From NCBI GenBank assembly GCA_014803525.1, contig JAAVBP010000002.1, positions 6,492 through 70,491 of the forward strand: a stretch of DNA of 64,000 nucleotides. The letters run 5' to 3'. Source of the stretch: a bacterium (GTDB lineage: Bacteria > Pseudomonadota > Alphaproteobacteria > Rs-D84). The notes under the pieces were generated by a model. It was not told the DNA's origin, made no database searches, and saw only the letters and a list, made by a program, of their open reading frames with translations. Within the stretch, counting starts at the first letter, position 1. Each line of letters opens with the position of its first letter. A program made the translations under genes and the position numbers. Positions 11,105-60,353 of the stretch are shown piece after piece.

Positions 11105-11114
11105 GTATACCCGG

Positions 11115-12089: not shown

Positions 12090-12175
12090 AATTTACGTCC
12101 TTTCATATATAACAATGGGAAGAATATCAAAGAATAACCCCATTGGCAATTATTATATTTTTTAACGATTTTTGC

Positions 12176-13228: not shown

Positions 13229-13249
13229 AATAATCCCCCATTTATAAAA

Positions 13250-14752: not shown

Positions 14753-14830
14753 TCCATCCATCCGCAATTCACACTATATCACAATAATTTAACCCTTGCA
14801 AGGGGCGCTGGCATCGATACAATACCCACC

Positions 14831-15883: not shown

Positions 15884-15888
15884 AAAAA

Positions 15889-18640: not shown

Positions 18641-20899
18641 TTATGGATTTATAGTGCAAGATGTCCCTGTATTCCACTCAGCCCCCGTTATAGTATCGCA
18701 TTTCGCCTTTGTCACAGCACTGGCACCCTGGAACGCCCTAAGGTTATCACGCCAGATAAAACTGTTGCCATCAATCGTCAATTTGCACTGGTTATTGCTA
18801 GAATCCCATGCGGCATTTGTGATCTTATCACAGCGTTCTTGCGTCATTATATACTGTGTGCCAATTGACATATCCAGCCACTTTTTTTGTTCTGTGCCTT
18901 CATATCCTGTCACGGACATACACGTTGTAATCACAGCGTTACACGCCTTGATCGCAACATCGCTGGGGGTATTTGAATTAGATGTATTATAATAAGACCC
19001 ACTGAAATTATAATTGTTCTGTGACAGACAAGACGCAACATCAGAGATACAGCTGTCGGCATAATCACTTAATACCTGATCTTGCTTTGCCTTGATTTGA
19101 ACCAATGTACGTTGCAGGTATTCCTTGATAACAGAATTGCCATATGTAAAGGATTTATTGGCCCCACTGCCCGTTGTATAGGTCAAATCCTGGCACTTGT
19201 TCAAAACAGATGAACACATGCCAAAGTTTTTACCATCTTTGACATACCCGATCTTGGCCTGCAGGTATTCTATCATATTTGATGTATTCTGCTTTGGTTC
19301 CGTCGTCGAAACACTATTGGCTATATACGCCGCAACCGTACCGTCCGTCCACGGATTGGAGTCTTCTGCCTTATAATTCCATACCTGATATAACCCAGTG
19401 CTAATTTCTCCGCTGTCGGCGCTAACACCGGCCACGCCGGGGGTGCTGCCTGCAACAACGGCGCCGTTTACGATATATTTGCCGGTCGGATCCAGACAGT
19501 TTTCATAATCAGATCCACACACAAAATCATCCTGCATACAGCTGTCCAGGGCGTTTACACATCCACGCAGATCGTATTGATTCTTTTGCTGGGCCACCAT
19601 TAAACGCGCCTTTTGCAGAACACTTTTTGCATTGCGTACCGTCGACGCCATTTGATCGTTCGCCTCGGTCAGGCTGCGCTCGTACGCGATACACTGTTTA
19701 TCTATTTCCAGGTCATATGCATTTGTGATCAGCGACGCATCAACACCCTGGGCGGTACAGCTGTTTAATACAGACGCCTTGCAGCGTGCCGTTGCCGTCT
19801 TGAACAATTGTTCGCCACGCTGATTGCTGATACTGCTGGTGTTGGATGTTACGCCAAACAAATTCGATAAATCAAATCCTGTACTGGATATCGAGAAATC
19901 CAACAACCCAGACAAATCAAACGACAGCCCTGAATCAGACGATACCGCATTACCGCTTTTTACATCGACAATCAGGTTTTTGATCTTGTCCAGATCATTT
20001 TTCAACTGGGTATTATCGGTTTTATTTTGCAGTGTTAATTCCGCCTCAGTCTGACTGAACAAGGTTTCAATATCATCACCGGACAGACCGATATACTGGA
20101 TCTTTTGCGCAACATCTTGCAGGTCTTCGGTCGCCTGTTTCAATGCCGCCTCGGTCGTGGCATAATTCTTTAAATTCGCACTGCAACTGCAACGTCCCTG
20201 GTTATCATCCAGAACGTTACAGAAATTATCCATGCACGACATATACTGCGCCTTGCAGAAATCAGTCAGTTGAGCCAATTCGTCCATATCGGTTGCCGTG
20301 GACGTGGCACTGACCGATGTTTCAGCCACCGTCGCCGCAGATCCCGCCATGCGAATTGTCGGCACACGTGATGTCACATTTGAACGAACACCAACACGCC
20401 CCGTATACAACGGTGTACTTACAGTATCTGTTTGAACAATAGACGATGTTGTCGCCGCACGCGCCGCGGTTGCGGCACCGGTTGATGCGCGACGTGGCGT
20501 AACCGGCATGGCGCCCGCACTGTTTGATGCACGTGACACGGTTGCGCGCGCCGCGGTTGAACGAGATGCAGCATTCACATTTGTCGTTGTACGCGCCGTG
20601 GTACCCGCACTGCGCCCAGATACACCACGCGTTGTCACATTACGTGTCGGGGCCACGGTTGCACCACCGGTCGCAACCGCACGGGACGCATTGCGCGTTG
20701 TGTTTGTACGTGCCGTTGGGGACTTGGCCGCTGTTTGGGCCGCGGGCATAACAACATTATCCTGGATATCTTCTGTAGATTCCGCATCCACCGCATCAAC
20801 GTCAGCATATTCTATCACATCTTCGTAATAAATGGGCGCAACCTCAGCAAATGCGGGCAAAACCAGCAAACCACTAAGTACAGCAATTAATCTTTTCAT
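18641..20899 (-). CDS. Large secreted Cys-rich protein with Arg/Thr/Ala/Ser-rich N-terminal low-complexity region (752 aa)
   Basis: Signal peptide MKRLIAVLSGLLVLPAFA. About 180 aa of R/T/A/S-rich sequence. Then many spaced Cys residues (FCKAQYMSCMDNFCNVLDDNQGRCSCS ..). Confidence 0.65.
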   Translation of the reverse strand: MKRLIAVLSGLLVLPAFAEVAPIYYEDVIEYADVDAVDAESTEDIQDNVVMPAAQTAAKSPTARTNTTRNASRAVATGGATVAPTRNVTTRGVSGRSAGTTARTTTNVNAASRSTAARATVSRASNSAGAMPVTPRRASTGAATAARAATTSSIVQTDTVSTPLYTGRVGVRSNVTSRVPTIRMAGSAATVAETSVSATSTATDMDELAQLTDFCKAQYMSCMDNFCNVLDDNQGRCSCSANLKNYATTEAALKQATEDLQDVAQKIQYIGLSGDDIETLFSQTEAELTLQNKTDNTQLKNDLDKIKNLIVDVKSGNAVSSDSGLSFDLSGLLDFSISSTGFDLSNLFGVTSNTSSISNQRGEQLFKTATARCKASVLNSCTAQGVDASLITNAYDLEIDKQCIAYERSLTEANDQMASTVRNAKSVLQKARLMVAQQKNQYDLRGCVNALDSCMQDDFVCGSDYENCLDPTGKYIVNGAVVAGSTPGVAGVSADSGEISTGLYQVWNYKAEDSNPWTDGTVAAYIANSVSTTEPKQNTSNMIEYLQAKIGYVKDGKNFGMCSSVLNKCQDLTYTTGSGANKSFTYGNSVIKEYLQRTLVQIKAKQDQVLSDYADSCISDVASCLSQNNYNFSGSYYNTSNSNTPSDVAIKACNAVITTCMSVTGYEGTEQKKWLDMSIGTQYIMTQERCDKITNAAWDSSNNQCKLTIDGNSFIWRDNLRAFQGASAVTKAKCDTITGAEWNTGTSCTINP

Positions 20900-21027
20900 G
20901 CGAAATCTTCCCTTCTATTATGTTTACTTTATCACAAATACCATACCCGCGCAAACAAAAAACTGAATTATCTTGTAAAAATCGCAAAATACGATATAAT
21001 CCCAAATCAGAGAAAAAGGGATAAAAA

Positions 21028-27753: not shown

Positions 27754-27778
27754 AAAAAACGCCAAATGGCGTTTTTTT
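27754..27778. terminator. Bidirectional intrinsic terminator
   Basis: CGCCA-AA-TGGCG flanked by A6 and T7, between convergent genes. Confidence 0.65.
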
Positions 27779-29528
27779 ATTTCCAATTTGCCGGAATATC
27801 CGCATAATCGTCCAGCCCCGTGTCACCATCATAACACGAATCAACCCGGTCCGTGGTTGCGTTTGGCCATATTTCATATAAGTATTTGCCATTTATTTTT
27901 GCAGACGGCCCCGTCAGGGATGCACAACCACAAAACATGCGCGTAAACATACCCGGTTGCGTCGTGCCAGATATATCACCGAACAGGTTTTCTGGAATAG
28001 ACGTCAGACCACTGCACCCATAAAATATGCCGTTGAACATACTCTCTGCCGGGGTACCAAATATCCCCGCAAACAGGTTTTCCGGAATCGCCCCAGAAAG
28101 ACCACTGCATCCATTAAATGTATAATAGAACATAGCCCTCGCCGGGGCACCAGATATCCCCGCAAACAGATTTTCTGGGATCGAACCAGAAAGACCACTG
28201 CATCCAGCAAATGTCTCGCCGAACATATCCCCCGCCGGCGCCCCCGATATCCCAGCAAATAAATTTTCCGGGATCGGACCAGAAAGACCACTGCACCCAT
28301 AAAATGTGGCGTGGAACATATATACTGACGGCGCACCAGATATACCCGCGAACAGTTTTTCAGGAATCGAACCGGTCAGCCCGCTACAGTTACGAAATGT
28401 ATTGTTGAACATAAATAACGCCGGCGCACCCGATATCCCAGCAAATAAATTTTCCGGGATCGACCCAGAAAGACCACTGCACCCAGAAAAGGTGCCGCTG
28501 AACATATACCATGCTGGTGTGCCAGATATCCCCGCAAACAGGTTTTCCGGTATCGAACCAGAAAGGTTGCTGCATCCAGAAAATGTGCTGCTGAACATAT
28601 ACGTCGCCGGCGCCCCAGATACCCCAGCAAACAATTTTTCAGAAATCGAACCAGAAAGGCCGCTGCATCCAGAAAATGTGCTGCTGAACATACTCCGCGC
28701 CGGCGCGCCAGATATCCCCACGAACAGCTTTTCAGGAATATGGCCCGACAGATTTACACAATCTTGAAATGTGCCTTCAAACATATTCATGGCAGAACCA
28801 GATACACCAACAAACAGGTCTTCTGGGATCGTTCCACCCAGATTTGTACACCCCATAAAGGTGTGATAAAATCGCGGCTGATTGCTACTGCTGCCTCCTT
28901 TGCCAATTGTGGGAAACACCGCGCCCAGACGACCCGATATACCCATAATATTCTGATTACCTGCGAATGATATCACCGGAACAATGGGATTTGGATAATT
29001 GTCAGGCGAATACCCCTTAACATATCCACCAATACCGATCATGTATTCGCCGGGCGCAGTGTATGTATGAACGTATGTTGATGCCGTTGTGTCCTCGCGC
29101 TTTATAACGTCATACGTACCATCGCCCCAGTAAATCTGAAACACACCAGACGCAGACATGGTAAATTCAAACTCCGTTGTATCCGCGGTGGTTGTTACGA
29201 AAAACTTTGGCTCTATCTTAACCAGGCGATCCGCCGCATCAATTGCCGCAACGGTGTCGGCCGCATACTGTGTGGCAAACGCGCCATTGCCATAGTCTGT
29301 GGTTGACGTGCCATTTAATATCTTGTTCGCGCGATCCACCGCCGTCAGCAGGTATTTCATATTTGCCGCAACCTTTACGTTTTGCAGCACCGGGTTGTAC
29401 GGAACCGTGATCCCCCATTTTTGTTCAATCAGCAGGTGGATGTATTCAACATTGACCATTTCGGCGGCGCGTGCGGAATTACAAAGAAAACAGCCCACAA
29501 AACCCAATAAAATTAATAACTTGCGCAT
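27777..29528 (-). CDS. Secreted BspA/DUF285-like repeat surface protein, paralog 2 (583 aa)
   Basis: Signal peptide MRKLLILLGFVGCFLCNSARA. Same N-domain and C-terminal INGKYLYEIWPNA..IPANWK as paralog 1. Units MFxxTFSGCSGLSGSIPENLFAGISGAPA. Confidence 0.75.
   Translation of the reverse strand: MRKLLILLGFVGCFLCNSARAAEMVNVEYIHLLIEQKWGITVPYNPVLQNVKVAANMKYLLTAVDRANKILNGTSTTDYGNGAFATQYAADTVAAIDAADRLVKIEPKFFVTTTADTTEFEFTMSASGVFQIYWGDGTYDVIKREDTTASTYVHTYTAPGEYMIGIGGYVKGYSPDNYPNPIVPVISFAGNQNIMGISGRLGAVFPTIGKGGSSSNQPRFYHTFMGCTNLGGTIPEDLFVGVSGSAMNMFEGTFQDCVNLSGHIPEKLFVGISGAPARSMFSSTFSGCSGLSGSISEKLFAGVSGAPATYMFSSTFSGCSNLSGSIPENLFAGISGTPAWYMFSGTFSGCSGLSGSIPENLFAGISGAPALFMFNNTFRNCSGLTGSIPEKLFAGISGAPSVYMFHATFYGCSGLSGPIPENLFAGISGAPAGDMFGETFAGCSGLSGSIPENLFAGISGAPARAMFYYTFNGCSGLSGAIPENLFAGIFGTPAESMFNGIFYGCSGLTSIPENLFGDISGTTQPGMFTRMFCGCASLTGPSAKINGKYLYEIWPNATTDRVDSCYDGDTGLDDYADIPANWK
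27909..28874 (-). repeat. In-frame tandem coding repeats, mostly 93-nt (31-aa) period, about 10 units
   Basis: The motif recurs over aa 219-540. The repeats generate several long antisense ORFs (27957..28767). Confidence 0.85.
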
Positions 29529-42954: not shown

Positions 42955-43158
42955 GTTATTGCCTGTTTTACCGCACATGCATCACAATATTCTGCGATAC
43001 AATACCACAGTTATGCGGAAAATCAAGCAGAAAGTATTATAAGATTTTATCACGACCCGCGCAAGCAAAAAAGTACATTCAAATCGACCACAAATGCGCA
43101 CAATCACAAAAAACACTTCACAAATTCTATTTTTACGGGTCTTTTTGACTTTTTTCGC

Positions 43159-43188
43159 TTGCGGGGGCGATATTTTTTTGTCTACAAT
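43159..43188 (+). promoter_or_regulatory. Candidate promoter of the virB8-10 operon
   Basis: TTGCGG, 18-nt spacer, TACAAT, about 30 nt before the GTG start. Confidence 0.35.
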
Positions 43189-43215: not shown

Positions 43216-43881
43216 GTGCCGGATCAAGTTCGTCCACCGGTTTTAATATCCAGACTTATGGCGTTTGTATTGGCGACCGCACTGGTTGTGCTGGGGGCGC
43301 TTGTCATCACATTATGGTCCATGTTCCCACTGAACCGGCCCCAAGTGTTCTTTCTGACCACCCAGATGCGTCCAGACATGGATATCAAGCTGTATGCAAT
43401 GAACACGGACGAAAAGTATACAGAACTGTATAAAATATCCTTTATCAAAGAATACATCAAGGCACGCAACGAAATCGTCCCGAATACAAATGTTATGCAG
43501 CGCAAATGGGCAAATTCCGAAGACGGCATTGTCAATATGTGGTCAACCGGTGAAATATTTGATGAATTTACACAGACAAATATGTGGAATGCGGCGATGT
43601 ATTCCAATGCAAACATCGACGTTACATGCACGGTAGAGTTCCCACCACGACCAATATCAGAACGAACATCTGATAAAATGACATATACGGCAAATTTTAG
43701 CTATGTTTGCGTAAATAGTGATGGACAGACCGATAAAAAAGATTATACAATTATAATAGAATTGGAAAAGGCGGACAACGACACTATTAAATGGGGCGAC
43801 CGAACAAACAACCCGCTGGGGCTGTATGTGCGGCGTTATGAAATTGATTCAGGCGGTACAGATCCGCTGGATTTCGAATAA
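43216..43881 (+). CDS. virB8: Type IV secretion VirB8-like protein
   Basis: GTG start behind an AAGGGAGAG SD. One N-terminal TM helix, then a ~170-aa periplasmic domain (FIKEYIKARNE..W). First gene of an 8-9-10 order. Confidence 0.6.
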   Translation: MPDQVRPPVLISRLMAFVLATALVVLGALVITLWSMFPLNRPQVFFLTTQMRPDMDIKLYAMNTDEKYTELYKISFIKEYIKARNEIVPNTNVMQRKWANSEDGIVNMWSTGEIFDEFTQTNMWNAAMYSNANIDVTCTVEFPPRPISERTSDKMTYTANFSYVCVNSDGQTDKKDYTIIIELEKADNDTIKWGDRTNNPLGLYVRRYEIDSGGTDPLDFE

Positions 43882-43923
43882 TAACGCGTGGGACGCAACA
43901 TCTGGTACAAGGGAAGGATTGCA

Positions 43924-45447
43924 ATGAAATTCGCAAACGCAATTAAATTAAATGTTTCTATATTCTGTCTGGGGGCAATGTGCATTGGCGCGATGCCGGC
44001 ATTGGCCGCGCAAAGTGCATGGGATAATCCAAACGCCAACATGGCCGCCGGCAGTACCAAGCCCGGATATGCGCAATTGCCATGGTCACCGGGTGGTGTT
44101 TTGCCTGTAAAACTGCGCCAGGGCATGGCGACAATGATAACCCTGCCGAATGGCGAACAGATTTCAGATGTAATCGTTGGCAATAATGAATTGTTTCAAA
44201 TTGACACAACCCAGGGTTCCCGCACCATGTTTATGAGTCCGAACAGCGTCGGCGACACAAACATGATTGTTCAGGGGAAATCCGGCAACACTTATTTATT
44301 CTATCTGCGCGCCGAAGAAGCAGGTAGCAGTGAAATCACATATTCCCAGGTGGATGTTGTTCTGGATGGCAATGCAACCGTCCCCAACGCCAGTGCCGCG
44401 ACCACTACCCCATCGGGCAGCATGAATTCAATCTTTGCAAAGAAGTCAAATACCACCGGTACCGTTGGTGTTGATGGCGAAGATTATGGATGGATAAAAT
44501 CGATGAAGATTGATCCGTCAGAGTTCCGTTTTGATTTGGATATATTTGTACCCAATCCGGATGACTATGTAATTGCGCCGGAACGCGTATGGCGCGACCG
44601 TATATTCACATACATCGATTTCGGGGACAAGGTTATTTCCATGACCCAGCGTCCGGTGGTATCATTATTGGTCGAGGGTGGCGAATCCCCGGTCGGATTC
44701 CGTACCGATGGCGAAGATGGCAGATTGTTGATTGTTGAGGCCGTCGGCGACATGATCCTGCGCAGTGGTCAACGTATTGTTTGTATTAAAAAGCGTGAAA
44801 AACCGTTCCTGATTGCGGATACTGCATCTGTCATGGCACTGGCCGAGGCGAATGTTGCGCAGAGTATGATGTCGGGGCAATCACTGAATAACATCGCATA
44901 CCAGATGGACGTAAATGCCATGAATATGGCGGGCACGAATTACACCGGCACGCCGGTTTATGTGGGCCAGAATGCAAATGCCGCGACCGGTGTCGGCACA
45001 TATATGCCGATGGGTTACGGAACACAGGCATCACTTGCCGGCGGTGCGGTTGCAACATCCAGTGGCGTTACAATGATGCCAACCCAACGTGTTACCGCGG
45101 GCAGCTATCTGCCACAATCAAACATACCGCTGATCACCAGCAATCAAAACGGTGTTGCGGTTGAATTAAAATCAGATACATCGGTCAAGGCATTGGATGA
45201 TTATTGGACGGGGCTGCTGGCTAAATTCAGTGGCGAAGATGGCCAGGGGTTGTTGACCCCGTACAAAGACATGGTATTCTTTGCGGTTGATGAACAGGGC
45301 GTGGGCGATTTGGGCAGTGGTGCATCATCTGCGCGTCTGTATCGTTTGCGCATTGGGCCAATGGCGGATATTGATGCGGCACAAAAACTGTGCGACCAAT
45401 TGCTGAAATTCAGTGGCGCCAGTTGCAGCGTAGTTCGCATCCAGTAA
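43924..45447 (+). CDS. virB9: Type IV secretion VirB9/TrbG-like protein with C-terminal SPOR-like domain
   Basis: Signal peptide. LRQGMATMITLPNGEQISDVIVGNNELFQI..TNMIVQGKSGNTYLFYL (VirB9 N-domain). VWRDRIFTYIDFG..RIVCIKK (VirB9 C-domain). Tail LYRLRIGPMADIDAAQKLCDQLLKFSGASCSVVRIQ resembles SPOR. Confidence 0.7.
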   Translation: MKFANAIKLNVSIFCLGAMCIGAMPALAAQSAWDNPNANMAAGSTKPGYAQLPWSPGGVLPVKLRQGMATMITLPNGEQISDVIVGNNELFQIDTTQGSRTMFMSPNSVGDTNMIVQGKSGNTYLFYLRAEEAGSSEITYSQVDVVLDGNATVPNASAATTTPSGSMNSIFAKKSNTTGTVGVDGEDYGWIKSMKIDPSEFRFDLDIFVPNPDDYVIAPERVWRDRIFTYIDFGDKVISMTQRPVVSLLVEGGESPVGFRTDGEDGRLLIVEAVGDMILRSGQRIVCIKKREKPFLIADTASVMALAEANVAQSMMSGQSLNNIAYQMDVNAMNMAGTNYTGTPVYVGQNANAATGVGTYMPMGYGTQASLAGGAVATSSGVTMMPTQRVTAGSYLPQSNIPLITSNQNGVAVELKSDTSVKALDDYWTGLLAKFSGEDGQGLLTPYKDMVFFAVDEQGVGDLGSGASSARLYRLRIGPMADIDAAQKLCDQLLKFSGASCSVVRIQ

Positions 45448-45488
45448 ACCGGATGACGGATAACGGATAACGAGTGACGGGTAACGAC

Positions 45489-47900
45489 ATGAGCAAAATA
45501 AAGCAGCAATTTTCAGATTTGCGGAAAACGACGCCAAAACACGTTCAGTGGCTGCTGTTGGCGGCGGCATTTGTTGTGGTGCTGATATTGTTGACGTTGC
45601 TGGTTGGTGGATGGGGCAAAAACAAAGATAATATGCCCGCATCAGACGATCGGGAAATGACACTGAAAATCGACCCGAATGAAACACTTGATTGGGCCGG
45701 AACGCCTGTTGGCGAAATAAAAACACAACAGTATACGATTACTGCGACCGCACCCGTAAAAATACTGAATGTTCGCACCAGTGATGAAACACCGGGTCTG
45801 AGCATGGCGCACCAATGTCCGCCTGAATTGATCATAGATGAAAAAACAGGGTGTCGTATAACGGTAAAGTATGCCCCAGATGGTCCGATGTCCACCACGG
45901 GCGTTGCGCTGTATGTGGATTGGCGCGGGAAAGGCCAACCCGATACGGTCAAAAAAATCGCCAAGATAACAATGGCCATTGGCGCCAAAGCGACGGCGAC
46001 AGCACAACCGGCGGATGTAAAAAAAACCGAACCGCAACCAGAACCAGCGCCCATCGCGGAACCGACACCAATTGAAACACCGGTAACAGAACCTGTCGCC
46101 GAACCAGAACAAGAACCGGAATCCGACGCGGCGCCTGCGCCATTTATTGAACCAGATCCGGTGTCGGCCGCCATACCAGTCAAACAGGAAATCCGACAAG
46201 AGATTGAAGCAATTGCGCCATCGCTGTCGGAAATGGCACCGGTCGTGACCACAGAACCGTCTTATGCACAATCCGAGACATGTTCGGATTTTGCATTCCC
46301 GGGATATAACGCGTCCGGCCGTCAGATTGGTTGGATCAAACCAGAACGTGGTGCATATTATTTCCATCCGTTTTCGGACAAGAACTGTGACAGCCCGACG
46401 GGTGTTTACAATCCGGATAATGGTATAATCAGCGACATCAAAGATGCGTCTAAAAAAATTGGAACAGATGCCGAACATATAGGTTTTGCGGCGGTGACAA
46501 ATGGTGCGTTACCCCAGCTGTCGGCCGCCCCGAATAAAAAAAATCGCAGCAGTTCGACGGAACCATCGGCCCCCAGCGGTCAAATGGCGTTTGTAGAGAT
46601 GAAAAAGGTTCCCAGTGAAGTAGAATATGCTTCAACCGGTCAAGATACTGTTATCAGCACACAGATATACGATCGCAGCTTTATATTACGTCAGTATAAA
46701 CCAATTCCGGCCACAATTGTATCTGATGTTCGTGCGGATGCAACACTGATAAACGGTAAACAGTTTTTACCAGTTCGCGCAACCGTTGATCGCAATGTTT
46801 ATGCAGATAACGGTCGTACAGTTATTATTCCAACCGGAACACTGTTATTGGGATATGTAGATGGTGAAGTTCCTGGCCCATATAAGTCAATTGGTCGTAT
46901 GGAAATAAAGTGGTACCAGTTTGTTTTACCAAACGGTGTTGAGTTTAATTTTAATGGTTCGAATGATCCGTTTTCTGGCGACGCCCAGGGACGTGTTGGC
47001 GTACCAGGCCGTGGCAGTACGGATTACCTGGAACAATTTGTTATGCCAATGTTAACCGCAATTGTGCCGGCGGCGGTAAATATGATCGCACCGGTTGCGG
47101 ACAAGTTTGTGAACCAAATCGATTTAGATAATAACACGGTTGTACAAAGTGGTACGGTGCGTTCATCAGAACTGGCAAAAAATGAAATTATCACCGCATG
47201 GAACCAGGTTGCCCAGAAATTGATGGTTGATATGATGGATAACTCGGTACCACCATTTACAATCCCTGCTGGCACACGCATTACCGTATATTCACCAGCA
47301 GACTTACAGGTTTCATGTGGAACACCCGAATCAGGAAAACCAGAAAAGTGTGCGGTTGGATATGGCAACAATCAACGGCAATTATGGCAGCATAAGGCAA
47401 CTGCTGCTCAGGATGATTCTTGGGTTGGTCAGGTACGTTCCTTTAATGCAGAAAATTACTGTGAACAAAAGAACGGTTTATGGACCGCAAAGGCAGAATG
47501 TGCGCAAGGTACTTGTGGTGGAATGGATTACAGAAATCTGTTATTCTATTGTCAGACTCTGAATTACAAAGCGGTTAACAATGCAAAGCAAGAAGCAGTT
47601 TGGCAGAACCAAAATTCTGCGTCCAATACCAACAGCATTTCCAGCATGGGCGGTGTTGGCAGTCAGACATACAATGAACAGGTATTGGGATTGAAATATG
47701 ACGATGATACGGGCGCGATTATCAATCCGTTCCAGTCACTGCCCAAGGAAGAGGCACCGGCCGCAATAACATGCCCGGATGATGGATCCGCCCCGGATGC
47801 AAATGGTTGCTGTACGGGCGAAATATACACCGATATGGGCGACCAGGGATTCAATTGTTGCCCGGAAACAGGAGGCGACTGTTTCCCACCGATACTATAA
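45489..47900 (+). CDS. virB10: Type IV secretion VirB10/TrbI-like protein, oversized (803 aa) with Pro-rich linker and Cys-rich C-terminal extension
   Basis: TM anchor. EPQPEPAPIAEPTPIETPVTEPVAEPEQEPE linker. Core IPTGTLLLGYVDGEV..RMEIKWYQFVLPNGVEF..GRVGVPG matches the VirB10 barrel domain. The last ~200 aa hold 13 Cys. Confidence 0.75.
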   Translation: MSKIKQQFSDLRKTTPKHVQWLLLAAAFVVVLILLTLLVGGWGKNKDNMPASDDREMTLKIDPNETLDWAGTPVGEIKTQQYTITATAPVKILNVRTSDETPGLSMAHQCPPELIIDEKTGCRITVKYAPDGPMSTTGVALYVDWRGKGQPDTVKKIAKITMAIGAKATATAQPADVKKTEPQPEPAPIAEPTPIETPVTEPVAEPEQEPESDAAPAPFIEPDPVSAAIPVKQEIRQEIEAIAPSLSEMAPVVTTEPSYAQSETCSDFAFPGYNASGRQIGWIKPERGAYYFHPFSDKNCDSPTGVYNPDNGIISDIKDASKKIGTDAEHIGFAAVTNGALPQLSAAPNKKNRSSSTEPSAPSGQMAFVEMKKVPSEVEYASTGQDTVISTQIYDRSFILRQYKPIPATIVSDVRADATLINGKQFLPVRATVDRNVYADNGRTVIIPTGTLLLGYVDGEVPGPYKSIGRMEIKWYQFVLPNGVEFNFNGSNDPFSGDAQGRVGVPGRGSTDYLEQFVMPMLTAIVPAAVNMIAPVADKFVNQIDLDNNTVVQSGTVRSSELAKNEIITAWNQVAQKLMVDMMDNSVPPFTIPAGTRITVYSPADLQVSCGTPESGKPEKCAVGYGNNQRQLWQHKATAAQDDSWVGQVRSFNAENYCEQKNGLWTAKAECAQGTCGGMDYRNLLFYCQTLNYKAVNNAKQEAVWQNQNSASNTNSISSMGGVGSQTYNEQVLGLKYDDDTGAIINPFQSLPKEEAPAAITCPDDGSAPDANGCCTGEIYTDMGDQGFNCCPETGGDCFPPIL

Positions 47901-47904
47901 ACCC

Positions 47905-47925
47905 AACCCGCCGTCGGCGGGTTTT
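47905..47925 (+). terminator. Intrinsic terminator after virB10
   Basis: AACCCGCC-GTC-GGCGGGTT followed by a T-run. Confidence 0.7.
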
Positions 47926-47991
47926 AATTCAAATAAAGATGAACCAAGAAAAAATGATTTAGAAAATGATAATATTTCACGCAACATTTTT

Positions 47992-48017
47992 GCGCGCCAT
48001 TTGGCGCGCTTTTTTTA
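47992..48017 (+). terminator. Second tandem intrinsic terminator
   Basis: GCGCGCC-ATTT-GGCGCGC followed by T7. Confidence 0.65.
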
Positions 48018-48196
48018 ATTCGCGCGCACCACCGATATTAACACAGCCGATTCGGTTGCTTTTTGCGATTCGTTTTCAAAACACAAAAAACGTAAAATGA
48101 TTCAGAAATCCGATTCGCAGTTCAACCGACGGTTGTAATATTTTACATACTTCTAGTCTTTGGCTATATATCAATTAGAGAAAAAGGAGGAAAAAT

Positions 48197-48553
48197 ATGT
48201 TATCCCAAACAGCACAGAATTATATCAACGCAGAAAAATTCCAGAACGCAGAACAATTGTGGTTCTGGTTTTTATATTCAAAATCACTGCGTGGGCAATT
48301 CTGTCATAATCACAGCGCGGCCAATCAATCACGTAAAATATGTGAATTGATTGATGTGGAAACATTGGTTACAAAACTGTACCTGGCCGGGCGATTAACG
48401 GATGAACAATTGTCCGTGATGAAACAATTTGGTGATCGCCGTCGCGCCCCACACCAGTATATATGGACCGAAAACCGGGCCGCCGCCCTGTGGCGTGATG
48501 CGATGCAGACCCTGCAGGCCGCGGCCACACATCGTGGTTGGATTGCCGAATAA
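48197..48553 (+). CDS. Hypothetical protein (118 aa)
   Basis: Strong SD AAGGAGG. Trp-rich. No recognisable motif. Confidence 0.55.
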   Translation: MLSQTAQNYINAEKFQNAEQLWFWFLYSKSLRGQFCHNHSAANQSRKICELIDVETLVTKLYLAGRLTDEQLSVMKQFGDRRRAPHQYIWTENRAAALWRDAMQTLQAAATHRGWIAE

Positions 48554-48596
48554 AAAATCTATACAGAAACAGAAAATAAACAGGATAGGTATCAAT

Positions 48597-48935
48597 ATGG
48601 TTATTATCGCTTTCTCTGATAAAACATCAAAAGTCATTCCACGTATTGTGTGTCATAAATTTAAACATTGCGCACCGATTATCCCAACGGGCCACGACAT
48701 GGTTATGTATCAATTCACGCGACCGGGACATGTGACACCCATAAAAATAAATATGTCGGGGATTCGCAGGCTGCGACAACATGGCTGGCAATTTATATAC
48801 GTGCCACATGACACACCACCGAATTTTACCACGCGCGGCGCAATCAGCTGTGTTGACTTATCCAAGCGAGCATTAGGACTGCGTGCGGCATGGATATGGC
48901 GGCCGGATGGTTTATATACATATCTGCGCAATTAA
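48597..48935 (+). CDS. Hypothetical protein (112 aa), possibly a permuted papain-like (His..Cys) hydrolase
   Basis: Internal ATG 48597 behind an AGGATAGG SD; the tracked ORF from 48429 overlaps the previous gene. KHCAPIIP..GH.. and ..AISCVDLSKRALGL resemble His-before-Cys permuted NlpC/P60-type proteins (weak). Confidence 0.45.
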   Translation: MVIIAFSDKTSKVIPRIVCHKFKHCAPIIPTGHDMVMYQFTRPGHVTPIKINMSGIRRLRQHGWQFIYVPHDTPPNFTTRGAISCVDLSKRALGLRAAWIWRPDGLYTYLRN

Positions 48936-55142: not shown

Positions 55143-56267
55143 TTAATGAAAAATATAGCAATCAATTCCCGCAGCGGTCGCACGCGATTTTATGTCGGAT
55201 GCAGAACCTTCGGACAAGCCATTTGCACGCACGCGATACATGCCCGAACCATTTGGTTCCACAACAGGCGTGATACCAATTGCGCTTTGCACACGCGCAA
55301 CCTGGGCTGCGGCGGCAGCCTCTGATGAAAACGCCCCAAACTGCACCCCCGCACTTCCAGATGTTGCCGGAACCGTTACAACTGGCTTTGGTTTCGGCTG
55401 CGCTGATGGTGCGGGCGCCTGAACAGGCGCCGTAACCGGCGTTGTTTTTGTGACCGGCGCAGCGTTTGTGCCCAGCATATTAAAACCCTTGTTCAACAGG
55501 TTGGTTGAAACCGACGCACGAACATCTTTGTTTTCAGCCCCCAGCACCACCGACATCAAGCGATGCCCATCACGCGCGGCGGTCGCCACAAGCGAATATT
55601 TAGACTTGTTTGTATATCCGGTCTTCATCCCGTCGCACCCCGGATATGTACCCAGTAACCGATTGCCATTTGTATATGTTTTACCGTTATATGTCCACGT
55701 CTTTATCCCGAAATATTTCCAATATTGCGGGAAATGTTTATACACCGCCATGGACAGCAATGCGATATCACGCGCCGTCGACATATGATCATCGTTCGGC
55801 AGACCTGATGAATTTTCAAAGTGCGTTTTGGCCAATCCAATTTCACCCGCGACGCGCGTCATCAGTGATGCAAAGTTACCTTCTTTGCCGCCCTTTAAAT
55901 TTTCAGCCAAAACGCGGGCGACATCATTCGCACTGACCACTGCGACGGCCTTGATCGCATCTTCGACCTTGATCTTGCTGCCCGCGGCCAGACCAAGTTT
56001 TACCGGCGATGCATCGGCGGCGGCCTTGGACACAATCAGATAATCATCCATATGCAGGCGGCCGTGCTCCAACGCATCAAACGTTAAATACAGCGTCATG
56101 ATTTTGGTCAAACTGGCTGGATAATTCAAATCATTCGCATTTTCAGAATATAGTACCCGGCCCGTGTCCATATCGGCAACCAATGCCGCACGATACCCTG
56201 CAGCAGTCGCCACAGATGGTGCACAGACAATCACGGCGGCACAGATAAAACGCAAAAATCCTCTCAT
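55143..56267 (-). CDS. D-alanyl-D-alanine carboxypeptidase (PBP5/6, S11) with C-terminal SPOR domain
   Basis: ASLTKIMT (SxxK) and KTGYT. C-terminal GVQFGAFSSEAAAAAQVARV..MYRVRANGL..GIDCYIF is SPOR-like. Confidence 0.85.
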   Translation of the reverse strand: MRGFLRFICAAVIVCAPSVATAAGYRAALVADMDTGRVLYSENANDLNYPASLTKIMTLYLTFDALEHGRLHMDDYLIVSKAAADASPVKLGLAAGSKIKVEDAIKAVAVVSANDVARVLAENLKGGKEGNFASLMTRVAGEIGLAKTHFENSSGLPNDDHMSTARDIALLSMAVYKHFPQYWKYFGIKTWTYNGKTYTNGNRLLGTYPGCDGMKTGYTNKSKYSLVATAARDGHRLMSVVLGAENKDVRASVSTNLLNKGFNMLGTNAAPVTKTTPVTAPVQAPAPSAQPKPKPVVTVPATSGSAGVQFGAFSSEAAAAAQVARVQSAIGITPVVEPNGSGMYRVRANGLSEGSASDIKSRATAAGIDCYIFH

Positions 56268-58046: not shown

Positions 58047-58360
58047 TGAAAAAATTCACACGACGCATCGAAGATTTTAACTGCGCCCATTGCGGCGCAG
58101 TTGTTCATGGAAACGGATATACAAACCACTGCCCGAAATGCATTTGGTCACGGCATGTGGATATCAACCCGGGCGATCGGGCGGCGACGTGTATGGGCAT
58201 GATGCGTCCCATCGCCGCCGCACCGGCGAGTGACCATTTTATAATTACACACAAATGCGAAACGTGCGGCAAGACAATACGTCAAAAATCATCCCCCGAT
58301 GATGATACGGACACGATTATAAAAATTAGTGCCAACGACGATTTTATCTTTGGCAAATAG
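58046..58360 (+). CDS. RNHCP domain protein
   Basis: FNCAHCGAVVHGNGYTNHCPKCIWSRHVD. Confidence 0.75.
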   Translation: MKKFTRRIEDFNCAHCGAVVHGNGYTNHCPKCIWSRHVDINPGDRAATCMGMMRPIAAAPASDHFIITHKCETCGKTIRQKSSPDDDTDTIIKISANDDFIFGK

Positions 58361-58385
58361 CGTTTTTATTCCTATAATCGCATCC

Positions 58386-60353
58386 ATGAAAGATTGGATT
58401 CGTGCGCAATATCAAAATGCATTTCTATGGGCACCGTTTTTAATGACGGCGGGGGCTGGTGCCTATTTTACACTGGCGAATAATGTGTGCGGTGTATTAT
58501 GCGGGGCGGCTGCGACGATTGCATGTATGGGAATTATTTTCAAAAACAAATATGTATTTCGCGGGGCCGGACTGTTTCTGTTTGGATTTTTATATACAAT
58601 ATTATTCACACATATTTTTGCAACGCCACAAATATGGCGCCCAACCCGTAATACGGAAATCACAGGACGCGTAACATCAATTGATTACAGCACAGATAAA
58701 ACACGTATATTTTTATCCATACCGCGTGATGTAATTAAATCGGGTGTGCACGGAAACGCAACCGTTCGCCTGAACATCAAAGACGATATGCCAATTCCAA
58801 ATATCGGCGATAAGATCAATGCAACCGCCAGTATATTTCCACCAGCAATTGCCGATGCACCGGAAACATTTGATTATGCGCGATGGGCGTACTTTAATAA
58901 TCTGTCCGGGACAGGATACATTACAGACATGCAAATTATCCGACATGATAATGCCGGTGGTATCACCAAATTGCGTGACCGGTTGCACCATGCGGCAAAT
59001 TCTTTTTTAAGTGACGGTTTGGTTTTGGGGTATAAAGGAACACTGCCCAGCGACGATCGCGAAACATGGACAACAATTGGCATCGGTCACGTATGGGCGA
59101 TCAGTGGATTTCACATGACGTTGGTATCCACATGGTTCTTTTTGATATTCTTTGCCATATTCCGCAGGATTCCATATATCACACGTCGCGTGCCCGCACG
59201 AATTCCGGCGTTGATATGTGCATGGTTCGGATTACTGATGTATCTATTAATATCGGGAATGAGTGTTGCAACCGTGCGTGCATTCTTGATGGCGACATTG
59301 ATATTCAGCGCATTTATTATCGGACGCACGGCCCTGTCGATGCGTAATATCTGTTTGGTATTTTGCGCAATATTTCTGATTAATCCACATTATATAATGC
59401 AACCTGGATTCCAGTTATCTTTTTCCGCGGTATTCGGTCTGATATGGTTTTGGTCGCAATACAGACCCGCACGACGCCAAACCCGCATCGGCCGAACAGT
59501 ATTTGCAATTTATGCAGCTGCCATGACATCAATTGTCGCGACAATATTTACCGCCCCATTTGTTGCAATGCATTTCTATGCCATGCCCATGTATGGATTG
59601 ATTGGGAACCTGATACTGTTGCCGATATTTTCATTTGCAATCATGCCATTGGTTTTCATCGGAACATTTATTGCGGCACTTGGATGGCATGGACCGATAT
59701 GCTTGGCGCATCATGTTTATACTTTTACACTGGATATCGCCCAGGAAATTGTAGACCTGCCACACGCAAATATTGCGATGCCGCATATTCCAAATGTGGC
59801 GGTTGCGATAATAATATTTGGATTTTTATGCCTGATGTTTATCCGCAACACTGAAAACGCCAGACGCATTATGCGCGGATTACGTTATTATATATTCATC
59901 GCATGTGTTGCGACGGGAATTTATATTATCGCAACCGCACCGCGACCGGTCTTTTATGCGACCGCCGATCATGAATTAATTGCGTTTGTCGAGAACGGAA
60001 AACTGATATTTAGCAAATCATATGCATCCGGTCACTTCTTTACATTTGACACGTGGCGTCAATTAAATGGCGAACCCGTCGGCACCCCACCCATTAAACG
60101 CAAGGCAGAACGCGGCGTATGGATGTATAAATCAGAAAACTTTACCGTCGTATATATTCAACGCTTTAAACCGTTGTCGCGGGAAATTGTAAATATGTGT
60201 CGCGATGATAATATCGATTATATCGTGTCATACTTTGATGTGCAGAGTCCGAAATGCAATCATAAAATTTTGCGTGGTGGGTTTGTTATCTATCCCGATG
60301 GGCATGTACGCCAGAGTTTTATTCCGCGCCCGTGGAATAATCCGCAGAAATAA
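58386..60353 (+). CDS. comEC: ComEC/Rec2 family competence membrane protein
   Basis: Polytopic; GIGHVWAISGFHM core motif. Start at ATG 58386 (MKDWIRAQ). Confidence 0.8.
   Translation: MKDWIRAQYQNAFLWAPFLMTAGAGAYFTLANNVCGVLCGAAATIACMGIIFKNKYVFRGAGLFLFGFLYTILFTHIFATPQIWRPTRNTEITGRVTSIDYSTDKTRIFLSIPRDVIKSGVHGNATVRLNIKDDMPIPNIGDKINATASIFPPAIADAPETFDYARWAYFNNLSGTGYITDMQIIRHDNAGGITKLRDRLHHAANSFLSDGLVLGYKGTLPSDDRETWTTIGIGHVWAISGFHMTLVSTWFFLIFFAIFRRIPYITRRVPARIPALICAWFGLLMYLLISGMSVATVRAFLMATLIFSAFIIGRTALSMRNICLVFCAIFLINPHYIMQPGFQLSFSAVFGLIWFWSQYRPARRQTRIGRTVFAIYAAAMTSIVATIFTAPFVAMHFYAMPMYGLIGNLILLPIFSFAIMPLVFIGTFIAALGWHGPICLAHHVYTFTLDIAQEIVDLPHANIAMPHIPNVAVAIIIFGFLCLMFIRNTENARRIMRGLRYYIFIACVATGIYIIATAPRPVFYATADHELIAFVENGKLIFSKSYASGHFFTFDTWRQLNGEPVGTPPIKRKAERGVWMYKSENFTVVYIQRFKPLSREIVNMCRDDNIDYIVSYFDVQSPKCNHKILRGGFVIYPDGHVRQSFIPRPWNNPQK

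Follow-up and report, generated by a model that had tools for sequence, protein, structure and literature searches.

The locus and its setting

Three genes of type IV secretion system (T4SS) families lie side by side in the genome (approximately 0.9 Mb) of Candidatus Enterousia, a gut bacterium of the order Rs-D84 in the Alphaproteobacteria, and the question is what kind of machine such a partial set belongs to. They are present in a window of 64,000 nucleotides, the stretch of DNA to which the positions refer. Positions 43216-47900 contain three co-oriented open reading frames (ORFs) coding for homologs of VirB8, VirB9 and VirB10 (221, 507 and 803 aa), with intergenic gaps of 42 bp (virB8/virB9) and 41 bp (virB9/virB10). 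This operon probably codes for the core structure of a divergent T4SS of P-type (VirB/D4-like), dispersed or reduced in this organism. The family assignments had been proposed in a first-pass annotation and are borne out by profile searches, as all three Pfam matches are above the gathering scores. The genes and surrounding signals are:

43145..43174, + strand: candidate sigma-70-type promoter, TTGACT-18-GATATT (consensus scan, 9/12 matches)
43216..43881, + strand: virB8-like gene, 221 aa (Pfam PF04335, E=4.8e-10, profile positions 22-211 of 213)
43924..45447, + strand: virB9-like gene, 507 aa, ending in a SPOR-type domain (Pfam CagX, E=2e-21; TIGR02781 VirB9, E=4.7e-14)
45489..47900, + strand: virB10-like gene, 803 aa (Pfam TrbI, E=1.3e-17; NCBIfam T4SS_VirB10, E=1.4e-15)
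47992..48016, + strand: strong intrinsic terminator closing the operon (scan and direct reading; 7 G-C pairs and T7)
48197..48935, + strand: two small conserved ORFs (118 and 112 aa) that have a ribosome-binding site and a terminator of their own

The virB9-like frame spans 43888/43924-45447, the called product of 507 aa beginning at the ATG at 43924, and the virB10-like frame spans 45474/45489-47900. The candidate promoter, located upstream of virB8 in the divergent gap adjoining tRNA-Trp, is weak, because such sites are no more common in this region than in shuffled sequence. Of the two tandem terminators that had been proposed downstream of virB10, the one at 47992-48016 is strong, whereas the hairpin just past the virB10 stop codon (approximately 47905-47929) is followed by four T only and failed the + strand terminator scan. 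A third, weak hairpin is found at 48044-48066. The two small ORFs come after the trio in Enterousia and may possibly be tied to the secretion system; the one of 118 aa shows 57-80% identity in most Enterousia loci. Neither has a Pfam match, and no counterpart was found after VirB10 in a distant relative (L090).

The slot nusG/secE/tRNA-Trp next to virB8-virB9-virB10 is kept in all 80 species-level Enterousia genomes compared, with intact frames throughout and a fixed chromosomal place amid housekeeping genes. The VirB8-like protein, which consists of an N-terminal transmembrane helix followed by the periplasmic VirB8 domain, has an ortholog in each of these 80 loci (identity 38-67%), while VirB9 identity is 72-89% over the 80 species. 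In the C-terminal domain of VirB9, amino-acid identity reaches 97.7%, versus 56% at third codon positions. The comparison shows strong purifying selection on the trio across the genus. The G+C content of the trio is in line with that of its surroundings, and relatives occur in 262 species genomes in all (tblastn).

A SPOR-type tail on VirB9

The VirB9-like protein, which matches TrwF/VirB9 of R388 in profile searches, can be divided as follows:

43924..44007, + strand: predicted Sec signal peptide, aa 1-28 (...PALA/AQ), inferred from sequence and alignment
44467..44883, + strand: C-terminal (outer-membrane cap) domain, aa 182-320, nearly invariant in the alignment
44884..45135, + strand: low-complexity linker of approximately 84 aa, rich in Ala, Gly, Thr, Asn and Met (indels and low conservation in the alignment)
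45136..45444, + strand: SPOR-type domain, aa 405-507 (Pfam SPOR, 22.7-26 bits; cutoff 21)

Because there is no lipobox, the protein is probably not a lipoprotein. Near the end of the cap domain lies Cys287, which we take to be placed like Cys262 of Agrobacterium VirB9, also near its domain end and bonded to VirB7.

The first-pass annotation had likened the VirB9 tail to a SPOR domain. This holds at the level of sequence: a Pfam SPOR match of 22.7 bits (cutoff 21) spans the last 35 residues, SPOR is matched by 17 of 19 divergent VirB9 tails and is the sole recurring Pfam match in the tails of several lineages, and in two relatives (L132 and L090) the match is near full-length. The evidence from the fold is weak. 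The AlphaFold model of the tail has the element order beta-alpha-beta-beta-alpha-beta at low confidence (pLDDT 58), its structural matches are generic ferredoxin-like ones, and neither sequence nor fold searches retrieved a solved SPOR structure. In its first half, the domain has diverged and contains an insertion. Since the model is of low confidence and its matches are generic, the assignment rests on sequence profiles, according to which the tail is a divergent SPOR domain. A PBP5-type carboxypeptidase at 55143-56267 does bear a SPOR domain (E=7.4e-9), as had been stated.

Both the profile match and the modeled element order are shared with the classical SPOR proteins (FtsN, DamX, DedD, RlpA; PF05036), but these are division or wall-remodeling factors and not parts of secretion systems. 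In some of them, e.g., FtsN, a Cys pair in the SPOR domain forms a disulfide, and the two invariant Cys of the VirB9 tail (490 and 501) may do likewise. A precedent for a peptidoglycan-binding module in a T4SS outer-membrane complex is the OmpA-like module of DotK from the Legionella Dot/Icm core complex, but DotK is a separate subunit with another fold.

Profile comparisons show SPOR-tailed VirB9 to be common to a large alphaproteobacterial T4SS clade, in which the tail is, on this evidence, an ancestral trait and not peculiar to the Enterousia gene. The clade comprises more than 2,300 clusters at 90% identity (summed match totals), the tail itself having been checked in approximately two dozen members. 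Databases annotate its members plainly as 'TrbG/VirB9 family', and no description of a SPOR-tailed VirB9 was found in the literature, in line with the initial suspicion; the fusion is widespread, although it seems undescribed.

An enlarged VirB10

VirB10 is approximately twice the canonical size, and the N-terminal beta segment, acidic Pro-rich linker and Cys-rich tail of approximately 200 aa noticed earlier are all recovered by alignment and AlphaFold:

45489..45617, + strand: cytoplasmic N-tail, aa 1-20, and inner-membrane helix, aa 21-43 (alignment, AlphaFold)
45663..45989, + strand: periplasmic PapD-like/ASH-type Ig beta-sandwich, aa 59-167 (AlphaFold pLDDT 85-94)
45990..46277, + strand: acidic Pro/Glu-rich disordered linker, aa 168-263 (variable in the alignment; pLDDT <45)
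46278..46478, + strand: second conserved beta module, aa 264-330 (CSDFAFPGY...GTDAEHIGY; pLDDT 84-88)
46692..47303, + strand: TrbI/VirB10 beta-barrel domain, aa 402-605 (Pfam PF03743; Foldseek and PDB profile matches)
47025..47237, + strand: antenna-like two-helix hairpin, aa 513-583 (helices 513-546 and 559-583, low pLDDT)
47304..47897, + strand: Cys-rich C-terminal extension, aa 606-803, with 12 Cys, ending ...GCCTGEIYTDMGDQGFNCCPETGGDCFPPIL (alignment, Cys count)

The N-terminal helices are modeled at residues 2-14 and 17-40 (pLDDT 72-87). The beta-sandwich, with two conserved Cys and weak conservation in the giant VirB10 of relatives, is matched in Foldseek by HYDIN PapD-like domains, CEP192 SPD-2 and Caf1M. 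PARP/TonB-like matches in the linker are spurious and due to composition. The second beta module, which had not been singled out before, contains Cys265 and Cys300 and is conserved in VirB10 of two distant relatives (L090 and L092). The Cys-rich tail is absent from both of these proteins and has no family match in Pfam. It contains 12 Cys rather than the 13 first counted, out of 16 in the whole protein; ten are invariant in the alignment.

The VirB10 model matches the TrwE/VirB10 O-layer (7o3j_A, E=1.4e-4) and CagY in Foldseek, and profile searches return CagY and ComB10. VirB9 and VirB10 thus share families, by profile and fold, with the solved core complexes of R388 (TrwH/F/E; 7o3j, 8rt6) and Helicobacter (CagX/CagY; 8cb2, 9vgf), and the predicted two-helix antenna is a further likeness to solved VirB7-VirB9-VirB10 complexes. 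By analogy with solved VirB10 structures this hairpin, an invariant block among Enterousia species, is a candidate outer-membrane pore. However, the similarity is very low (E 1e-4 to 1e-5), the VirB9 of the solved complexes is devoid of a peptidoglycan-binding domain, the Enterousia locus has no VirB7 gene, and its VirB10 is twice the size of TrwE.

Missing partners and fuller relatives

The trio had been described as isolated. Locally this is correct: neither VirB4, VirB11, VirD4, VirB6 nor pilin families occur among the genes of the window and the adjoining approximately 17 kb of the contig, lineage-matched queries (VirB2, B3, B4, B11 and D4) gave no tblastn match around the trio, and VirB4, VirB11, VirD4, VirB6, VirB2 and VirB7 are lacking both in these approximately 82 kb and in 83 Enterousia loci. 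The isolation is a local statement only, and for the family as a whole the description fails. Elsewhere, the loci compared show clade members together with VirB7, VirB11 and a weak VirB6-like match, or with a full conjugative set. In two related gut Alphaproteobacteria (L084 and L085), VirB9-SPOR is encoded in the order VirB8, VirB7-like lipoprotein (58-63 aa in such relatives), VirB8, VirB9, giant VirB10, VirB11. In a VirB11 scan of metagenomes (best 80 of 168 matches), a VirB10-like gene lies upstream of VirB11 wherever the upstream flank is long enough, as does a VirB9-like gene where the flank reaches far enough. A weak VirB6/TrbL match adjoins one relative's locus. The Enterousia terminator sits precisely where relatives have virB11. 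Two features are specific to Enterousia: VirB7 and VirB11 genes no longer adjoin the trio, and VirB10 has the Cys-rich tail.

The closest cultured, and best annotated, matches are plasmid systems of Sphingomonadales (Sphingosinicella sp. BN140058 p1, NZ_CP035502.1; Erythrobacter aureus, NZ_CP031358.1). Their VirB9, 37-38% identical in the core, is likewise long (430-432 aa). In Sphingosinicella its tail is homologous to that of Enterousia (hhalign probability 96.6%, E=6e-10), and in Erythrobacter it gives a sub-threshold SPOR match (16.8 bits). In contrast to the Enterousia locus, these systems are plasmid-borne and complete (VirB2, B3, B4, B8-B11, VirD4, MobA/MobL relaxase, topoisomerase, primase), and their VirB10 (approximately 530-550 aa) has no Cys-rich tail.

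A parallel in organization is the rvh T4SS, likewise a chromosomal P-type system of Alphaproteobacteria with reduced genomes, whose genes are split over several islets (PMC4676284, PMC2653234). In Rickettsia typhi, the order is rvhB8-II | rvhB7, rvhB8-I, rvhB9-II, rvhB10, rvhB11 | rvhD4, with the remaining rvh genes in separate clusters (PMC4676284); compared by gene order, rvhB8-II/B7/B8-I/B9/B10/B11 equals the order in L084 and L085, and a large VirB6-like gene may adjoin one relative's locus. Enterousia differs in belonging to Rs-D84 and not to Rickettsiales, in missing VirB7, the second VirB8, VirB11 and VirD4 at the locus, and in its larger VirB10 with extra modules, while a SPOR tail on RvhB9 is not mentioned (PMC4676284, PMC2653234).

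Alternative explanations

A less probable explanation is that VirB4, VirB11, VirD4 and VirB6 were lost altogether and that VirB8-VirB9-VirB10 were put to a new use as a wall-anchored complex bridging both membranes, e.g., as a tether within the envelope or as a passive conduit in the outer membrane by which DNA or metabolites would be taken up from the gut or a partner cell. An operon that terminates past virB10, with the T4SS ATPases not found in approximately 82 kb or 83 loci, would fit such a relic, as would the recurrence of the trio-only arrangement in a lineage at 50% identity (L090/L091), the extremely strong selection on the VirB9 cap domain and ComEC in the window. VirB7, the second VirB8 and the VirB10 beta-flower repeats of relatives are all missing, which suggests a reduction trend, and standard transporters are missing from the Enterousia genome (PMC12306168). 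Nevertheless, the search covered less than 10% of the genome, and in Rickettsiales T4SS genes are as a rule scattered (PMC4676284). VirB10 also retains its conserved cytoplasmic N-tail and transmembrane helix. In canonical systems, these parts couple to the ATPases, and to our knowledge no T4SS-derived complex works without VirB4.

Rather doubtful is a role as the outer part of a transformation machine, passing DNA through the periplasm to ComEC as a nucleotide source for a genome with little biosynthesis. The model here is Helicobacter ComB8-10, a VirB8-VirB9-VirB10-type operon without VirB11 or VirD4 that works with ComEC. ComEC is encoded in the window (58329-60353), two genes past virB11 in a distant relative (L086) and within 10 kb in two others (L048, L062); the NCBIfam ComB10 model gives 49 bits on VirB10, the PDB ComB10 entry E=0.004, and JGI has named one homolog 'ComB9'. 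Yet VirB10 and CagY models outscore ComB10, relatives carry the VirB11 that ComB lacks, and the nearest relatives from cultured bacteria are relaxase-bearing conjugation systems. Moreover, eleven housekeeping genes separate ComEC from the trio, and ComEC is common in bacteria regardless of T4SS. ComB also requires ComB4, ComB2/3 and ComB6/7, and no ComB4/VirB4 was seen in the approximately 82 kb or the 83 loci.

That the trio is a functionless, decaying remnant of an integrated conjugative element, as its plasmid relatives and missing neighbors might suggest, is extremely improbable and effectively refuted by the conservation data, i.e., intact frames in all 80 loci, the spread over 262 species genomes, the fixed position, the matching G+C content and a cap domain preserved despite nearly saturated synonymous sites.

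A probable T4SS core, dispersed or reduced

The reading as the core of a divergent P-type T4SS has observations against it as well. The ATPase genes were not found in the region or loci searched and the operon ends before the virB11 position; the trio-only arrangement also occurs in L090/L091; the VirB11 scan (best 80 of 168) returned no Enterousia-like orphan virB11; and a secretion system is not mentioned in the published account of Rs-D84 genomes (PMC12306168). In a genome so strongly reduced, the ATPases could plausibly have been lost. Because VirB9-SPOR relatives have fuller sets and rvh genes are split in islets, the trio is most simply explained as a fragment of a machine of known type, and not as a stand-alone system.

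In such a machine, VirB8 would nucleate assembly at the inner membrane, where the N-terminal helix of VirB10 would be anchored, its two beta modules and Pro-rich linker spanning the periplasm. The outer-membrane cap would consist of the TrbI barrel and the VirB9 C-terminal domain, and its putative pore would be lined by the antenna helices. By means of the flexible linker of approximately 84 residues, each VirB9 would extend its SPOR domain back to the peptidoglycan, fastening the cap to the wall, and the Cys-rich VirB10 tail may replace the stapling role of the lost VirB7 lipoprotein. Genes for VirB6 and for the motor (VirB4, perhaps with VirB11 and VirD4) would lie elsewhere in the genome, in the manner of the rvh system of Rickettsiales. 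SPOR domains prefer denuded septal glycan, and the machine may therefore be deposited at division sites, and hence at new poles. A role in delivering effectors to a partner cell, or in exchange with one, would fit the partner-dependent lifestyle that has been proposed for the Rs-D84 lineage (PMC12306168).

Family assignment and extent of the operon

The trio consists of three genes that share one orientation in the ORF listing, with product lengths taken from gene calls on the identical public contig:

43216-43881 (+), virB8-like, 221 aa
43888/43924-45447 (+), virB9-like, 507 aa
45474/45489-47900 (+), virB10-like, 803 aa

The first-pass annotation had placed the products in the VirB8, VirB9 and VirB10 families of type IV secretion systems (T4SSs), and profile searches bear this out. 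The matches to VirB8 (PF04335, E=4.8e-10, profile covered almost end to end), CagX/VirB9 (PF03524, E=2e-21) and TrbI/VirB10 (PF03743, E=1.3e-17) exceed the Pfam gathering scores, and NCBIfam is concordant, with matches to VirB9 (TIGR02781, E=4.7e-14), T4SS_VirB10 and ComB10. All NCBIfam scores lie far under the equivalog cutoffs, and the proteins are therefore divergent. Each has the architecture of its P-type T4SS counterpart. VirB8 is a bitopic inner-membrane protein, with an N-terminal hydrophobic helix read from the sequence and a periplasmic VirB8 (NTF2-like) domain. VirB9 combines N- and C-terminal beta-sandwich domains of the CagX/TrbG family and matches TrwF in two stretches in a profile comparison, while VirB10 has an N-terminal transmembrane helix, a Pro-rich region and a TrbI barrel with a helical antenna. 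Hits of T2SS-T3SS_pil_N (25.5 bits) and TraK_N to the VirB9 N-domain overlap the CagX match and reflect related beta-sandwich similarity, not a separate domain. Two tandem terminators had been proposed to close the operon. A strong one is present at 47992-48016, but the hairpin directly after the virB10 stop codon is weak, as is a third at 48044.

Conservation in Candidatus Enterousia

A scan of species-representative genomes found a VirB9 homologue in 262 genomes. The 80 loci retained come from metagenome-assembled genomes (MAGs) labelled Alphaproteobacteria or Candidatus Enterousia. Their gut hosts are human, rodent, ruminant, horse and chicken. Genome records and the literature (PMC12306168) assign the organisms to Candidatus Enterousia, order Rs-D84, a few records being loosely labelled 'uncultured Rickettsiales'. 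Enterousia genomes measure 0.75-1.0 Mb and encode neither a TCA cycle nor respiration nor standard transporters; it has been proposed that these bacteria depend on a partner (PMC12306168). Three Enterousia locus contigs (L023, L041 and P0224) have been assigned to Bacteroides fragilis and Muribaculaceae bins, which is probably mis-binning in public MAGs. A search of sequencing runs turned up no RNA run and a single DNA run, which contained 7% of the sampled words.

The trio occupies an identical slot in all 80 loci, flanked by rplK-nusG-secE-tRNA-Trp and, at its other end, usually by orf118-yidC-lspA. VirB9 shows the highest identity across loci (72-89%), VirB8 and VirB10 ranging from 38 to 67% and from 41 to 71%, respectively. 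In the VirB9 cap, the C-terminal domain spanning aa 182-320, amino-acid identity is 97.7% versus 56% at third codon positions; in the tail that follows further downstream (aa 405-507) it is 85.5% versus 57%. Purifying selection on VirB9 is very strong, and on this comparison a decaying remnant is therefore ruled out.

The SPOR-type tail of VirB9

The VirB9 tail had been described as SPOR-like. SPOR domains bind denuded peptidoglycan glycan strands and localize to the septum. In the protein of the window, the last 35 residues match SPOR (PF05036) at 22.7-26.0 bits (cutoff 21), over profile positions 42-76 only, so that this match taken alone is marginal and partial. The family gives a clearer picture. 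When 1.84 billion representative proteins were searched exhaustively, full-length VirB9 relatives that retain the tail at only 38-43% identity were recovered, and SPOR is matched by 17 of 19 divergent tails (best E=4.5e-7), with no other Pfam family recurring. The tails of two further lineages cover almost the whole profile (L132, positions 9-76, 24.6 bits; L090, positions 8-69, 26.5 bits). Two Cys are invariant in the tail family, and the first half of the tail domain carries an insertion. From these profile matches, the tail is concluded to be a divergent SPOR homologue, for which peptidoglycan binding may be inferred.

Structural support is limited to topology. The AlphaFold model of the tail has the beta-alpha-beta-beta-alpha-beta order expected of SPOR at a mean pLDDT of 58, which is consistent with a SPOR fold and does not demonstrate it. 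Foldseek with this low-confidence model returned generic ferredoxin-like folds only (E ~0.02) and no SPOR entry; PDB sequence-profile searches with tail alignments A2 and A4 likewise found none, the best hits being antibodies (E >0.1). The latter negatives are taken as a lack of sensitivity and not as evidence against SPOR. A resemblance to the second SPOR protein of the window had also been proposed. This is a PBP5-type D-alanyl-D-alanine carboxypeptidase (55143-56267, -) whose C-terminus is clearly a SPOR domain (E=7.4e-9). By hhalign, the tail family and the PBP5 domain are only marginally similar, at a probability of 5.7% over 33 columns. No published description of a SPOR-tailed VirB9 was found, and at present these proteins carry only the generic annotation 'TrbG/VirB9'.

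Anatomy of VirB10

The layout of VirB10 was derived from an alignment of 25 orthologues and an AlphaFold model. Shallow alignments limit both the VirB9 tail model and the VirB10 model to low overall confidence.

Layout of VirB10
aa 1-43, cytoplasmic tail and transmembrane helix (alignment, AlphaFold)
aa 59-167, beta-sandwich (confident in AlphaFold; Foldseek matches to PapD-like/ASH Ig domains)
between aa 59-167 and aa 264-330, disordered Pro/Glu linker
aa 264-330, second beta module (confident in AlphaFold), common to distant relatives
aa 402-605, TrbI domain (low pLDDT in the barrel)
aa 513-583, invariant two-helix antenna (predicted helices 513-546 and 559-583)
C-terminal extension of 198 aa, with 12 Cys, 10 of them invariant

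The description of VirB10 as oversized and Cys-rich holds for its 803 aa, its extra modules and its Cys-rich extension, although the extension contains 12 Cys and not 13. The model matches the TrwE/VirB10 O-layer structure 7o3j_A (Foldseek E=1.4e-4) and also CagY, and the sequence profile weakly matches CagY and ComB10 in the PDB profile search. VirB10 of L090, a lineage with a trio-only locus, and of the comparison locus L092 has four Cys only; the Cys-rich extension is specific to Enterousia. Matches to Trypan_PARP, TonB and 'Bubble' are artefacts that arise from the biased composition of the Pro-rich and Cys-rich parts.

Missing partners, relatives and known systems

VirB4 is the ATPase that serves as the universal signature of T4SSs. 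No T4SS ATPase, VirB6 or pilin was found in the window and ~17 kb of flanking contig by precomputed and fresh Pfam annotation, and lineage-matched tblastn queries for VirB2, B3, B4, B11 and D4 had no match in either the window or 83 Enterousia loci. The trio operon neither contains nor adjoins a small lipoprotein ORF that could encode VirB7. An SLT_2-type lytic transglycosylase adjoins a 500-aa 'Pom' (PF17251) protein at 12176-14767 (-); this wall-remodelling pair lies ~30 kb from the trio and by annotation is not VirB1-like.

The trio had been called isolated. Locally this holds for the window, its flanks and the 83 loci, but elsewhere VirB9-SPOR is accompanied by a VirB7-like protein, VirB11 or complete systems. 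A profile of distant VirB9-SPOR proteins retrieved >1,400 additional clusters, each of them from uncultured Alphaproteobacteria. The gene order in these relatives is VirB8, a lipoprotein of 58-63 aa, VirB8, VirB9-SPOR, a giant VirB10 (1,500-2,350 aa) and VirB11. The lipoprotein is marked by its lipobox and also contains a conserved SPCAC motif; it has no tblastn match in Enterousia loci, short proteins being hard to detect. The ATPase aligns end to end with TIGR02788 VirB11. Giant VirB10 genes, some split in two, lie at 11825-18889 in L085, 11563-16086 in L086, 11452-21429 in L084 and 1831-9982 in L132. Their products bear beta-flower (PF21784/PF21785), DUF3659 and RHS-like repeats N-terminal to the TrbI domain, whereas Enterousia VirB10 has no such repeats.

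Among the best 80 of 168 metagenome matches to VirB11, a VirB10-like gene lies upstream wherever upstream DNA sufficed, with VirB11 coming directly after it, and a VirB9-like gene is found upstream as well where the flank is long enough. These 80 included only loci of other lineages and no orphan Enterousia virB11. In one VirB11-bearing locus (L123), a neighbouring 920-aa gene weakly matches TrbL/VirB6 (21 bits versus a cutoff of 25.9). Upstream of the VirB8 genes, L085 (323-8229) and L084 (1598-8109) contain 5-7 tightly packed, co-oriented genes of no matched family, which may be unrecognised parts of the system; one L084 gene upstream of VirB8 is a Peptidase_M23. As a source of T4SS partners for the trio this set was rejected, having neither family matches nor homologues in Enterousia loci.

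A comparable order is known from the Rickettsiales vir homologue (rvh) T4SS. In Rickettsia typhi it reads rvhB8-II, rvhB7, rvhB8-I, rvhB9-II, rvhB10, rvhB11, the remaining rvh genes being in separate islets (PMC4676284). L084 and L085 share this B8-B7-B8-B9-B10-B11 order, whereas the window has B8-B9-B10 alone. The rvh system has duplicated B4, B8 and B9 and several large VirB6 paralogues; L084 and L085 have two VirB8, and in Enterousia loci neither a duplicated VirB8 nor VirB6 paralogues were seen. Hosts of rvh belong to the order Rickettsiales, unlike Enterousia (Rs-D84).

The best plasmid matches by tblastn are VirB9 of Sphingosinicella sp. BN140058 p1 and of an Erythrobacter aureus plasmid (430-432 aa, 37-38% identity in the core). 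Both plasmids encode complete systems with VirB2, VirB3, VirB4, VirB8, VirB9, VirB10, VirB11, VirD4 and a MobA/MobL relaxase. The Sphingosinicella tail aligns with the tail family (hhalign 96.6%, E=6e-10), and the Erythrobacter tail matches SPOR below threshold. It follows that the SPOR-type tail dates far back in a T4SS clade to which ordinary conjugation machines also belong.

Neighbouring genes

Downstream of the trio lie two small ORFs with a strong ribosome-binding site of their own and a bidirectional terminator that also serves yidC:

48197-48553 (+), orf118, 118 aa
48597-48935 (+), orf112, 112 aa

Neither has a family match. The former is conserved in most loci, and the latter is seen again in at least one locus, L050, which comes from a complete genome; orf118 does not match the gene after VirB10 in L090. 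Between orf118 and yidC, L050 has a 3-5 kb insertion with a 751-aa protein (15085-17340, -) and a 188-aa ORF with a signal-peptide-like N-terminus, and several other loci have an insertion of like size. The 751-aa protein is a probable paralogue of a similarly built 752-aa secreted protein of the window (18641-20899, -), which has a long Thr/Ala/Arg/Ser-rich N-terminal region, 22 Cys and no family match; a comparison found the latter unrelated to the Cys-rich tail of VirB10.

Further paralogous secreted proteins of 583, 482 and 616 aa are encoded at 27777-29528 (-) and 1030-2478 (-) in the window and at 10833-12683 in the comparison locus L088. They have a common N-terminal domain and many ~25-aa tandem repeats (...SGSIPENLFAGISGAPA..MF..TF.GCS.L...) that resemble BspA-type leucine-rich repeats, with no real Pfam assignment, and may be surface or adhesion proteins. 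Some ~1-10 kb past the 3' end of the window, L088 12941-20882 encodes a MarR regulator, a TolC-like/RND efflux set (OEP, YknX_C, ACR_tran) and a phage-type integrase; an integrated element may have its border here.

Possible roles of the trio

The most economical reading is that the trio is the core-complex operon of the SPOR-tail clade T4SS, streamlined in Enterousia. Streamlining would have left one VirB8, no adjoining VirB7 or VirB11 and a VirB10 without the repeat array. The new VirB10 tail, disulfide-rich or metal-binding, may take over from VirB7 in stabilising the cap, and the motor would be encoded at other loci, on the rvh pattern. Judging from solved T4SS structures and known SPOR behaviour, the antenna would line the pore of the cap, and the SPOR domain would tether the cap to the wall through a flexible linker, with possible septal or polar placement.

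The main rival holds that the ATPases are truly gone and that the trio has a passive role. The terminator closing the operon, the overall genome reduction and the fact that L090, a lineage at 50% identity, likewise has a trio-only locus speak for it; it is nonetheless considered unlikely. Slightly less probable still is its fullest form, in which the trio is the whole T4SS remnant in both Enterousia and the independent L090 lineage: a peptidoglycan-anchored, two-membrane-spanning, ATPase-free structure, very strongly selected in a ~0.9 Mb genome. Such a trio might be an envelope tether or a passive conduit for uptake or contact and, if real, would be without precedent among known T4SS core complexes in having been recruited to work independently of an ATPase.

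A ComB-like role in DNA uptake has also been suggested by the position of ComEC (Competence and DUF4131), which is encoded at 58329-60353 (+), ~10 kb downstream of the trio, and in L086 (38% VirB9 identity) at 18865-21015, two genes after virB11. This may reflect residual synteny or a functional link with DNA uptake. For Enterousia VirB10, ComB10 scores under VirB10 and CagY; the ComB system uses ComB2/3/4 and ComB6/7 with ComB8-10, whereas the Enterousia locus has B8-B10 homologues only. Moreover, VirB11 occurs in the relatives, and the closest systems from cultured organisms serve conjugation, both of which argue against such a role.

The relation of the T4SS outer-membrane complex to the cell wall is poorly understood. 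The clade-wide VirB9-SPOR fusion points to direct anchoring of the machine in the wall, perhaps with septal or polar placement. Members of the clade abound in uncultured Alphaproteobacteria from human and livestock guts, bacteria with reduced genomes and a proposed dependence on partners; the VirB9-SPOR apparatus is therefore a prime candidate for their partner interaction. If the Enterousia version is truly without ATPases, a secretion core would be reusable as a passive envelope structure.
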